A stretch of 12,722 bases of DNA from NCBI GenBank assembly GCA_964507075.1, contig CAZDOL010000003.1, positions 17,424-30,145 of the forward strand, in the 5' to 3' direction. Shown here piece after piece: positions 1 to 2,775 of this stretch. Position numbers and translations under genes: made by a program. Position 1 is the stretch's first letter; each line of letters begins with the position of its first letter. The notes under the pieces were generated by a model. It was not told the DNA's origin. It did no database searches and saw only the letters and a program-made list of their open reading frames with translations. Origin of the DNA: an uncultured Gammaproteobacteria bacterium. GTDB lineage: Bacteria > Patescibacteriota > Patescibacteriia > UBA2591 > UBA6264.

Positions 1-27
1 GAGCACAGCGAGCAGGTTCTTATAATT
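1..27 (+). promoter_or_regulatory. Promoter-like module GAGCAGGTTCTTATAATT upstream of the Clp/Hsp100 gene; truncated copy of the repeat family at 2869-3013
   Basis: Perfect TATAAT at 21-26, ending 17 nt before the ATG at 43. The preceding GAGCACAGCGAGCAGGTTC matches the GAGC..AGCGA..GTTC units upstream of rplU. No TTGACA-like -35 seen. The window edge cuts the element. Confidence 0.4.
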
Positions 28-42
28 AAAAATTAAAAAATT

Positions 43-2775
43 ATGCAATTTGTTATTTGCCCAGAGTGTCAGGGTCACGGATTTCAAGGTTCTAAAAAAT
101 GTCCAGTTTGTTCTGGCAAGGGCGTTTATCTTTCGTTTGGAGGATTTGTTTTATTTTTTGAAAAAATTTTTAATCCTCAGGAAAAAATTAATGCTATTGG
201 AAAATCTTTCTTAAGAATTATGTTTAAAATAGCTTCTTTTTTATTTATTTTATGGGGAGTCGTTTGTTTACTAAAAATAGTTACTGACTTATTTAAGCTA
301 CCTTACTACCCCCTCTTTCTGACCCCACTTTTGCCCCTAGATAATCTATGGTTAATTTTTTGGTTAGCAGTATTAGTGGGTTGTTATTTAATTTATTTTC
401 AAGAAAGAAAAAAAGAAAAAAAAATAAAAATTTGGCCAAAATCTAAAATTACACAAACAAAGGAATTATTAAATTTTACGGATATAAAAAATTTGCCCGC
501 TAAATATAAAATTGAAGTTTTTTCTTCTTTATCCAGGTCCAGCTTAGTTCTAATTAGGCGAGCATGGAGCTTGGCTCGCAAGTATAAAAATTCTCAGATA
601 ATGCCAATTCATATCTTGGGAGCGGCACTAAGAGATTTAGACATTAAATTAGTTTTAGCGCGATTGGGATTGAATTATAATGTTCTACAGAAAAAAATAG
701 AACGCTCATTAAGTGTTTCAGATGAATCTCAAATCAAAAAAATGTCACAGATTACTTGTGGTTTAGATAGTAAAAAAATAATATTATTTGCTTATACTTT
801 GGCCGGAGAAAAAGATCGACTTAATTTATCCCCTCTAGAAATATTGGAATCTTTAATTGTTAATGATGATTTAGTTAGAGAAGTTTTTTATGATTTAGAA
901 ATTGATGCTCATCAAATAAAAAATGTTTGTCTTTGGATAGATCTTTATAATGAATTTAGGGCCCAACAACATTATTTTTTCCAACGTTCTCGTTTCAAGC
1001 CCAAGGGGGCCATTAATAAAGCTTATACAGCTATAGCTACCCCCAATCTTGATGCCTGTAGTCAAGACTTAACTCAATTAGCGCGTAATAATTATTTACA
1101 ATTTTGCGTAAATCGCGAGAAAGAAAAAGAAGACATTTTTAGAATTTTTAGCACAGAACGTCAAAGTATTATTTTAGTGGGTCAACCAGGTGTAGGAAAA
1201 TCAACTTTAGTGGGTGGCATTGCTCGTCTGATGGTTACAGAGGATGTACCTGAAATTTTAGAAGACAAAAGATTGGTTAGTTTAAGTTTGGCTAATTTAA
1301 TTGCTGGAGCATCAAGGCCAGGAGACATAGAAGCTCGGTTGCAGTCCATAATTAATGAAGTTTCTATTTCTGGCAATATCGTTCTTTTTATCAAAGATAT
1401 TCATAATATGATAGGGATGAAAACTACCCAGGGAGAATTGGATATTTCTGAAATTTTAGCTAATATCCTGAAATCAAAATCTTTTTTGCTTATTGCTACT
1501 TCTATCCCCAAAGAATATCATCGTTTAATTGAGGGTCAAGCTTTAGGGGAATCATTACAGAAGATAGACATGGAAGAGCCAGACAAAAATATTAATATCC
1601 AAATTTTGGAAGCTCATGCAGCTTTTGTGGAAAGCAAAGAACAGGTTTATTTTTCTTATCGAGCCATAGAACGAATTGTTGATTTGTCCAAGCGTTATAT
1701 TCATGACCGTTTTTTTCCAGAAAAAGCTGTTAATCTTTTAAAAGAAGTGGCAATTATGGTTAAAAGGGCGCGAAGTAAAAAAAGTATTGTTGGACCAGAA
1801 GATGTAGCTGATTTAATCTCTCAAAAAGTTAAAATTCCAATATCTAGGGTTACGCAAGAGGAGTCAAAAGTTCTCCTTGGGCTAGAAGATAGAATTCATC
1901 AGCGTTTAATTAACCAGAACGAAGCAGTGAACGCAGTTTCAGCTGCTTTGCGTCGGGCTCGTACTGAGTTAAGAAATAAAAAAAGGCCGATTGTTAATCT
2001 CCTTTTTCTTGGGCCTACCGGGGTTGGTAAAACTGAGTTAGCAAAAACAGTGGCTGAAGTTTATTTTGGCGATGAAAACAGAATGATTAGAATTGATATG
2101 AGTGAATATCAAGATAGCTCTAGCATAGGTCGTTTATTGGGGATAGCTAGCGAGAATAGGGGTGGTTATTTAACTGAAGCCGTTCGTCGCAATCCTTACT
2201 CTCTTTTATTGCTTGATGAAATAGAGAAAGCCGACCCAGACATCTTAAATCTTTTTTTACAAGTTATGGAAGATGGTCGTCTTACTGATGCCTTAGGGAG
2301 AACCATTGATTTTACAAATGTTATTCTAATTGGAACTTCTAATGCTGGCACAGAATTTATTCAAGAAGGTTTAAGAAAGAATATGTCCATAGAAGATATT
2401 AAAGAAATTTTACTGCAAGAGAAACTTAAGCCTCACTTTCGTCCTGAATTTCTTAATCGTTTTGATGGATTAATTGTCTTTAAAACTTTGGGCAAAATTG
2501 AAATTCAAAAAATTGCCAAATTATTATTAAATAAATTAAGCAAACAACTAGAAACCAAGGGAATTTCTTTCCGTGCGACCGAAGAGGCTATTCAGGAATT
2601 AGCTGAAGTTGGATTTGATCCTGCTTTTGGCGCTAGACCATTACGGCGTGCTATTCAAGACAGGGTTAACAATCTTTTGGCTGACTTTTTGTTAACTGGC
2701 AAAGTAAGTCGTAGAGATGTAGTGATTTTAGAAAAAGGAGGTAATCTCCGAATTGAAAAAGCAAATAGAATTTAA
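43..2775 (+). CDS. Atypical two-ring Clp/Hsp100 AAA+ ATPase (ClpA/B/C family) with an N-terminal CxxCxGxG zinc finger and two predicted TM helices
   Basis: 910-aa ORF. NBD1 Walker A is GQPGVGKST (about nt 1179-1206). NBD2 Walker A is GPTGVGKTELAK (2011-), Walker B is LLLLDEIEKA (DE at 2215-2220) and sensor-2 is GARPLRRAIQ. Clp_N-like repeats follow the TM region. The N-terminus reads CPECQGHG...CPVCSGKG. Hydrophobic segments are FKIASFLFILWGVVCLLKIV and LWLIFWLAVLVGCYLIYF. Confidence 0.9.
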   Translation: MQFVICPECQGHGFQGSKKCPVCSGKGVYLSFGGFVLFFEKIFNPQEKINAIGKSFLRIMFKIASFLFILWGVVCLLKIVTDLFKLPYYPLFLTPLLPLDNLWLIFWLAVLVGCYLIYFQERKKEKKIKIWPKSKITQTKELLNFTDIKNLPAKYKIEVFSSLSRSSLVLIRRAWSLARKYKNSQIMPIHILGAALRDLDIKLVLARLGLNYNVLQKKIERSLSVSDESQIKKMSQITCGLDSKKIILFAYTLAGEKDRLNLSPLEILESLIVNDDLVREVFYDLEIDAHQIKNVCLWIDLYNEFRAQQHYFFQRSRFKPKGAINKAYTAIATPNLDACSQDLTQLARNNYLQFCVNREKEKEDIFRIFSTERQSIILVGQPGVGKSTLVGGIARLMVTEDVPEILEDKRLVSLSLANLIAGASRPGDIEARLQSIINEVSISGNIVLFIKDIHNMIGMKTTQGELDISEILANILKSKSFLLIATSIPKEYHRLIEGQALGESLQKIDMEEPDKNINIQILEAHAAFVESKEQVYFSYRAIERIVDLSKRYIHDRFFPEKAVNLLKEVAIMVKRARSKKSIVGPEDVADLISQKVKIPISRVTQEESKVLLGLEDRIHQRLINQNEAVNAVSAALRRARTELRNKKRPIVNLLFLGPTGVGKTELAKTVAEVYFGDENRMIRIDMSEYQDSSSIGRLLGIASENRGGYLTEAVRRNPYSLLLLDEIEKADPDILNLFLQVMEDGRLTDALGRTIDFTNVILIGTSNAGTEFIQEGLRKNMSIEDIKEILLQEKLKPHFRPEFLNRFDGLIVFKTLGKIEIQKIAKLLLNKLSKQLETKGISFRATEEAIQELAEVGFDPAFGARPLRRAIQDRVNNLLADFLLTGKVSRRDVVILEKGGNLRIEKANRI

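Follow-up and report, generated by a model that had tools for sequence, protein, structure and literature searches.

A membrane-anchored, zinc-finger-bearing Hsp100/Clp-type ATPase as the probable motor of a two-part AAA+ machine in Patescibacteria

The first long open reading frame (ORF) of the DNA analyzed here, a 12,722-nucleotide stretch of contig CAZDOL010000003.1 (the window), raises the question of what work a Clp-type ATPase does when its N-terminus carries a zinc-finger motif and two membrane helices. The ORF lies at positions 43 to 2775 on the plus strand, as do all features within the window described below. It is complete, and its 910-amino-acid (aa) product (P0001) was classified by translation, Pfam matches and alignment with ClpC as a membrane-anchored Hsp100/Clp-type ATPase. 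As read from the sequence, its architecture is a predicted zinc finger, a helical hairpin predicted to have both ends in the cytoplasm, a Clp_N domain and two AAA+ modules. We estimate a probability of roughly 60% that this protein is one of two components, the ATPase subunit, of a membrane AAA+ machine that is confined to Patescibacteria as far as taxon names go.

The ATPase body shares the domain order Clp_N, D1, D2 and D2-small with ClpA, ClpB and ClpC. Clp_N matched residues 176-223 (28.6 bits against a gathering cutoff of 20.7) within a predicted Clp_N-type N-domain (residues ~145-317, positions 475 to 993) that is helical in the AlphaFold2 (AF2) model. The D1 AAA+ module (residues ~331-581, positions 1033 to 1785) and the D2 AAA+ module with its D2-small domain (residues 582-894, positions 1786 to 2724) follow, with Pfam matches to AAA, AAA_lid_9 (residues 519-581), AAA_2 (residues 648-808, 174.5 bits) and ClpB_D2-small (residues 816-894, 78.6 bits). 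The closest solved relative by alignment was ClpC (6em8; E 5.5e-131). Foldseek likewise placed the body nearest to ClpC, with a template modeling (TM) score of ~0.81 over ~585 residues, and the top hits were ClpC and ClpB. The NCBIfam models of ClpB (TIGR03346, 546.6 bits) and ClpA (TIGR02639, 483 bits) scored below their equivalog cutoffs of 1232.1 and 993.15 bits, respectively.

The motor elements of the two rings were compared with those of ClpC. The D1 module keeps its Walker A motif (GQPGVGKS), but the pore loop KYRGEFE of ClpC reads SRPGDIE here, without a Tyr, the Walker B motif FIDELH reads FIKDIH, and the arginine-finger block ALERRFQ reads ALGESLQ. In D2, the Walker A (GPTGVGKT) and Walker B (LLLDEIEKA) motifs and the sensor GARPLRR are intact. 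The D2 pore loop, GAPPGYVGHDDGG in ClpC, corresponds to GI----ASENRGG, a four-residue deletion of GYVG. The ClpP-docking loop [LIV]-G-[FL], which lies in the seven-residue segment RFAGFGG of ClpC, is deleted, as it is lacking in ClpB. The M-domain present in ClpC is absent, as in ClpA; the ClpB and ClpC matches were split in two, skipping the M-domain, whereas ClpA aligned in one stretch. The lack of pore-loop tyrosines, D1 arginine fingers, ClpP loop and M-domain indicates that the protein is probably no ordinary unfoldase. It differs from ClpA, ClpB and ClpC in the loss of the D1 Walker B motif and arginine fingers and of the pore-loop Tyr of both rings, and also in having an N-terminal membrane hairpin, a zinc finger and an obligate small membrane partner.

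These losses are shared by the family. When the protein was aligned with 16 distant members from other families or classes of the phylum, the pore-loop Tyr of either ring, the D1 arginine fingers and the ClpP loop were absent from all 17 sequences, and the D2 catalytic motifs were kept in all 17. The D1 Asp-Glu pair was missing in 15 of them and kept only in L054 and L057. The best 150 matches of a profile search against 1.84 billion representative proteins were also examined; 139 of them were full length. All 150 were of this type: only one contained GYVG and none KYRGEFE, and the D1 Asp-Glu pair was seen in three.

The second part of the proposed machine is a membrane protein of ~120 aa, encoded just upstream of the window (G000:C3:16800-17165; also L011:7638-7997 and L013:7628-7990). 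It has no Pfam family match and contains the conserved motifs FPxWWY, P..(D)Y..GR and W..LP. At each of 11 distant loci checked, the gene just before that of the ATPase encodes a homologue of this partner. When coordinates from two independent phylum-wide searches were compared, the partner was the immediate upstream neighbor on the same strand in all 17 genomes in which both genes were located. The partner was found in 203 of 401 sampled Patescibacteria genomes (183 of the 339 high-quality ones), and both genes are absent from G267, a complete genome of the same order. Among the 150 partner matches listed, 40 sit in open frames of 684-920 aa, and each of the eight such frames fetched is an in-frame partner-ATPase fusion. 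Five of the best 150 representative proteins are also fusions of this kind. In the fusions, the partner domain occupies about the first 130 residues (residues 2-116 in six of them) and is followed by one hydrophobic segment and then by the Clp body. These natural fusions, which occur in many lineages, indicate, as Rosetta-stone evidence, that the partner and the ATPase act as one membrane machine.

The membrane hairpin of the ATPase is predicted from hydropathy, charge and structure modeling. Kyte-Doolittle windows of 19 residues exceeded the threshold of 1.6 at residues 55-87 (maximum, 2.41) and 93-121 (maximum, 2.0). The AF2 model, built on an alignment of 86 family sequences, had a mean predicted local distance difference test score (pLDDT) of 82.9 and a predicted TM score (pTM) of 0.70. 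It shows strands at residues 28-32 and 35-38, helices at 45-84 and 99-127 (pLDDT, ~82-89) separated by a low-confidence loop at 85-98, and then a flexible linker, the Clp_N domain and the two AAA+ modules. Accordingly placed along the gene are a beta hairpin (residues 28-38, with a conserved GG-Y/F-x-L) and an amphipathic, Lys/Arg-rich juxtamembrane helix (residues 45-58; together positions 124 to 216); predicted transmembrane helix 1 (residues ~59-84, positions 217 to 294), preceded by this Lys/Arg-rich flank; a short Pro-rich loop, predicted to be external, with few Lys/Arg and a pLDDT of ~60 (residues 85-98, positions 295 to 336); and predicted transmembrane helix 2, with a conserved FW...YL.Y (residues ~99-121, positions 337 to 405). 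The Lys-rich stretch QERKKEKKIKIWPKSK (residues 121-135, positions 403 to 447), which begins with QERKKEKKIKIW at residues 121-132, follows and is predicted to be cytoplasmic. In most family members, the second membrane helix contains an Asp (FW.S.L.D.YL.Y), which is replaced by Gly/Cys (GC) in this protein and its nearest relatives.

Across the 86-sequence alignment, the flanks of the hairpin carry on average 4.4 (before) and 5.9 (after) Lys/Arg residues and the loop, which is 13-27 aa long, carries 1.4. The flanks exceeded the loop in 86 of 86 sequences, which fits a hairpin whose two ends are both inside and whose loop is outside. A hydrophobic segment was present within the first 160 aa in 138 of the 139 full-length representatives. 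The earlier note on this DNA had described two hydrophobic segments followed by a Lys-rich stretch, Clp_N-like repeats and two AAA+ rings, and had placed both finger and ATPase in the cytoplasm by the positive-inside rule. Hydropathy, AF2 and Pfam bear out the former, and the charge bias of all 86 members agrees with the latter. Its question of whether the fusion of finger and transmembrane segments is clade-specific was addressed by surveying the architecture of homologues, and the answer is largely positive: every match with a taxon name came from Patescibacteria or Parcubacteria, except one from a metagenome-assembled genome (MAG) labeled "Candidatus Bipolaricaulota"; the other matches were labeled "bacterium." The Bipolaricaulota-labeled member (P0065, L076) could reflect a mislabeled bin or a rare presence outside the phylum.

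The predicted C4 zinc knuckle occupies residues 6-27 (positions 58 to 123). After the initial M-Q-F-V-I, the protein reads C6PEC9QGHG13, then FQGSKK, then C20PVC23SGKG27. The two exact CxxCxGxG units of the earlier note are thus present, but its spacer of 10 residues between them is not: 6 residues separate the octets, and 10 lie between C9 and C20. The M-start ORFs of the genome with a length of 100 aa or more total 180,607 residues and contain the exact motif seven times, namely, twice here, three times in DnaJ and twice as singles. Two copies 14 residues apart are, at this rarity, not a matter of chance. In the AF2 model, short beta strands are found at the knuckle (pLDDT, 81-87). When a 56-aa piece was searched, the Pfam families DnaJ_CXXCXGXG and Anti-TRAP matched residues 5-35 (E 6.7e-5 and 1.4e-4, respectively), and for residues 1-56 there was no match to zf-C4_ClpX at E values up to 10.

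The finger shares its exact CxxCxGxG units with DnaJ and anti-TRAP, but all scores were under the family cutoffs. DnaJ_CXXCXGXG (PF00684) gave 23.5 bits against a gathering cutoff of 32.7 and covered profile positions 44-65 only, compared with 60.5 bits for the DnaJ of the same genome. For Anti-TRAP, PF15777 gave 22.2 against 32 bits and the NCBIfam model RtpA (NF058604) 27.8 against 65 bits; the pattern and spacing fit. The spacing C-x2-C-x10-C-x2-C is what we take to be that of the single-zinc, two-repeat anti-TRAP module. DnaJ has four repeats, two zinc centers and a J-domain, whereas the protein studied here has two repeats, one predicted center and no J-domain, and the GxG part is degenerate in many of its relatives.

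The distribution of the finger was followed through the family. In the 86-sequence alignment, each of the four Cys is at least 90% conserved; two CxxC pairs occur in 83 of the 86 clusters, at least one exact CxxCxGxG in 76 and both exact units in 52. The idea, taken from the 16 distant members, that the GxG part is lineage-specific was dropped, as these 76 clusters keep an exact CxxCxGxG. The 139 full-length representatives contain two CxxC pairs in 81 cases, one in 8 and none in 50, with both exact units kept in 29, so that the finger is absent from about one-third of representative clusters. No CxxC was found in any of the 13 partner-fused forms examined, which favors a role of the finger in coupling a separately encoded partner. 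With this distribution, the finger appears to be a common yet dispensable accessory, and the anchor and the degenerate motor appear to form the core of the family.

Both ClpE and ClpX are soluble proteins that retain their pore loops and dock to ClpP. An N-terminal zinc finger on a Clp ATPase is itself not unprecedented: ClpX and ClpE have a Cys4 zinc motif at the extreme N-terminus, as here, and their N-terminal zinc-binding domain is functionally important (PMC2976762). The present motif differs in being of the CxxCxGxG type, in being followed by transmembrane helices and in lacking a match to the ClpX zinc-finger family.

Whether this N-terminus is made depends on the start codon. A region-restricted search with residues 1-170 matched 11 close homologues of 909-911 aa, and those with a taxon name came from Parcubacteria or Patescibacteria. 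The N-terminus is complete in all 11, even at 46% identity; the four Cys do not vary in an alignment of 12 close homologues, and the N-terminus is conserved across the 86 family clusters. When codons 1-135 were compared with a relative that is 76% identical there, the nonsynonymous and synonymous substitution rates (dN and dS) were 0.139 and 0.708, a dN/dS ratio of ~0.2, indicating purifying selection in this frame; the ratio for the AAA part was ~0.05. In relatives, the ATG lies 3-10 nucleotides past the stop codon of the upstream partner gene, which leaves no space for an upstream start, and a downstream start is implausible. Conservation of this kind indicates that the N-terminus is translated from the annotated ATG.

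The leader of the gene differs in this genome. No Shine-Dalgarno sequence could be read upstream of the ATG at position 43, and the leader is very short. A TATAAT box resembling a -10 element lies at positions 21 to 26, 16 nucleotides before the ATG; a consensus promoter scan gave no entry for it, as a -35 hexamer is missing. A tandem repeat of ~300 nucleotides, with this TATAAT at its end, separates the partner and ATPase genes here (window positions 1 to 42; G000:C3:17240-17465). The repeat insertion apparently broke up the gene pair and brought in a promoter-like element. The window is AT-rich, with a G+C content of ~30-36%.

Upstream, the gene order is clpP, rny, rpmH, rnpA, yidD, yidC, the 121-aa hydrophobic ORF of the partner and the ATPase gene, and the order is the same in relatives. 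The yidC gene is found directly upstream of the partner even in lineages only ~50% identical. As a universal neighbor yidC was rejected, since the 1.5-kb flanks of distant loci gave no yidC match, though it recurs in several lineages. In one lineage, a gene for an MraY/WecA-type transferase (Glycos_transf_4) lies directly downstream (L076:8993-10096), followed by rplU as in the window, and a Glycos_transf_4 domain is fused to the C-terminus of P0124 (1231 aa; Pfam E 7.6e-29). MltG/YceG is encoded downstream in another lineage.

The family appears to be large and without prior description. Its members bear generic names in the source databases ("ATP-dependent Clp protease ATP-binding subunit," "AAA family ATPase" or "hypothetical"), and in full-text literature searches, no account was found of an Hsp100 with a membrane anchor or zinc finger in Patescibacteria or the Candidate Phyla Radiation. 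A single-sequence search with the 165-aa N-terminus retrieved 17 distant members together with many DnaJ matches to CxxCxGxG and was replaced by the profile searches. One candidate long variant (L059 in G210, a 1146-aa frame) was discarded as an unrelated surface protein matched via its hydrophobic segment.

The chaperone and protease genes of the assembly (613 kb, 92% complete) were then compared with the functions that this ATPase might supply. DnaK is encoded in the genome, as are a DnaJ of 371 aa with a full cysteine-rich domain, an FtsH of 619 aa as a separate gene on contig C2 and ClpP, 4 kb upstream of the ATPase gene. No chaperone is therefore being replaced. ClpX was found neither in the assembly nor in any of 31 relatives. 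The ATPase gene is the only one with an AAA_2 domain found in the assembly. Both same-genus genomes and other family members carry in addition a canonical ClpB/C paralogue of ~872 aa (L072-L074), with a full M-domain and the motifs KFRGEFE, FIDELH, ALERRFQ and GYIGY and an NFGF loop. A tblastn search of this assembly for that paralogue matched only the membrane paralogue, which is most simply attributed to assembly incompleteness rather than to proven loss. From its motifs, the canonical paralogue is the likelier partner of ClpP than the membrane ATPase. Having both M-domain and NFGF, it may be a ClpB/ClpC hybrid and the only partner of ClpP in the lineage.

In the explanation that we favor, that of a two-part membrane machine, the ATPase would form a hexamer whose N-terminal face lies at the membrane, ringed by its own hairpins and by the partner. 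D1 would bind nucleotide without hydrolyzing it and serve as an assembly ring, and D2 would be the sole motor. The machine would neither dock ClpP nor be steered by DnaK via an M-domain, and classical threading is probably absent, given that both aromatic pore loops are gone. Driven by D2 cycles, the machine may instead remodel the partner, or a client associated with the membrane, or extract either of them. The finger would be a cytoplasmic accessory that most likely docks the N-terminus of the ATPase to a separate partner or adaptor, a role suggested by its absence from the 13 fused forms. The yidC, MraY/WecA-type transferase and MltG genes nearby would point to membrane-protein or envelope biogenesis. 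The client is probably related to the envelope or to membrane proteins; which client it is can be said with far less certainty.

Other explanations of the same gene were weighed against this one. It is very improbable that the architecture is an artefact, with the true start downstream (for example, at M60 or M187, where in-frame ATG codons exist) or with the helices forming a soluble hairpin and no membrane anchor. The conserved frame, the invariant Cys and the dN/dS of ~0.2 in codons 1-135, the upstream gene abutting the ATG in relatives, the phylum-wide occurrence of the N-terminal architecture and the charge bias in 86 of 86 sequences all speak against it, as does the hydrophobic nature of the partner, a membrane protein that other lineages carry as an in-frame fusion. 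The earlier note had proposed an unfoldase whose DnaJ-like finger binds substrates and which could substitute for missing DnaJ- or FtsH-type functions. A classical membrane-tethered ClpC/ClpA unfoldase of this sort, with the finger capturing clients and threading possibly leading into ClpP, would accord with the fold and sequence being nearest to ClpC, with clpP 4 kb upstream in a conserved gene order, with the lack of a detected ClpX in all 31 relatives and this assembly and of another AAA_2 gene here, and with the resemblance of the CxxCxGxG units to the substrate-binding domain of DnaJ. We nevertheless consider it unlikely. The proposal of an unfoldase is not supported: D1, which would be dead, has lost its pore-loop Tyr, its arginine fingers and its Walker B Asp-Glu pair, D2 has lost GYVG, and the M-domain and the [LIV]-G-[FL] loop are missing. 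Substitution is contradicted by the presence of dnaK, a full dnaJ, ftsH and clpP, and the canonical paralogue of both same-genus genomes, with intact pore loops and NFGF, is the likelier ClpP partner. A substrate-binding role of the finger is unsupported, the finger being optional, lacking in about one-third of the family and in all fusions examined. For the finger taken by itself, it is possible, but not probable, that it is an oligomerization or adaptor-binding domain like the zinc-binding domain of ClpX and ClpE and not a dock for the partner. Its N-terminal place is the same as in those proteins (PMC2976762), and some split forms without a finger still keep the partner; set against this are the lack of a ClpX zinc-finger match in Pfam up to E 10 and the absence of the finger from all 13 examined fusions, as would be expected of a finger linked to the partner.

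It is doubtful that the protein is a regulatory or scaffolding pseudo-unfoldase that has ceased to move substrates and whose nucleotide-dependent conformations control, via the partner, a membrane-bound enzyme or an insertase (an MraY/WecA-type transferase or YidC). It would explain why the elements that contact substrate were lost while the nucleotide-site motifs of D2 are strictly conserved, and also the adjacency or fusion of the transferase and the adjacency of yidC. On the other side, none of the catalytic motifs of a functional motor is missing from D2 and the whole 900-aa body is under strong purifying selection (dN/dS ~0.05 in the AAA part), both of which exceed what a switch would seem to require, and the neighbors besides the partner are inconstant. 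More tentatively than the two-part machine as such, the ATPase and its partner can be pictured as a non-threading AAA+ machine that passes D2-driven motion via the hairpins and the partner into or beyond the membrane. Its work would then be to assemble, extract or remodel envelope components, as in mechanotransmission of the FtsEX/MacB type, and in split forms the finger would be a clasp coupling motor to partner. Several points weigh against the two-part machine in the form that we favor. Some partner-fused members (L079, L082 and L085) keep the D1 Walker B motif (IILFIDEIH, IILFVDE[VI]H), so that D1 inactivation is not universal in the wider family; the pore-loop Tyr is still missing from them. 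The loss of this Tyr argues against classical threading, yet other residues may grip. Two split forms, L054 and L057, have no finger, and L054 keeps the partner upstream, so the finger cannot be the sole docking element. The membrane location is a prediction from hydropathy, charge bias and the nature of the partner. The AF2 model of the partner was poor (pLDDT 74.9, pTM 0.41). Neighbors other than the partner vary among lineages (glyS or a nucleoside triphosphate transferase, for example), which makes the client a guess.

The favored two-part machine has analogues among known membrane AAA+ proteins. In FtsH, archaeal LonB and Msp1/ATAD1, an N-terminal anchor sets the entry face of the AAA+ ring at the membrane, as would be the case here. 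FtsH also has a transmembrane pair, and it surveys clients of YidC; the ATPase gene studied here lies near yidC. FtsH is, however, a single AAA module of the classical clade whose pore loop is aromatic and to which an M41 protease is fused, whereas the present protein is a double-ring Hsp100 without aromatic pore loops and without a protease (no Peptidase_M41 domain), in a genome that has its own FtsH. Torsins are AAA+ proteins resembling the D2 of Clp/Hsp100 that lack aromatic pore loops and act at the membrane with transmembrane cofactors. NSF (D2) and p97 (D1) each use one non-catalytic ring for assembly. The likeness to torsins, NSF D2 and p97 D1 is one of mechanistic logic only, with no detectable specific relationship.

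To our knowledge, the characterized Hsp100/Clp machines are all soluble, grip their substrates via pore-loop Tyr and feed ClpP or work with DnaK. The ATPase family described here has none of these couplings; it is predicted to reside in the membrane and is tied to a small partner. It is an Hsp100-derived AAA+ protein whose architecture is new and which probably also works in a new way. Patescibacteria are ultrasmall and mostly episymbiotic, and in their minimal genomes the genes that are retained tend to be important; the partner was found in about half of the sampled species of this phylum. The naturally split and fused forms offer an experimental handle on the role of the finger. If the client were identified, a textbook protein family would gain a further mode of action, and the finding could explain part of how the envelope is built or maintained in ultrasmall bacteria.

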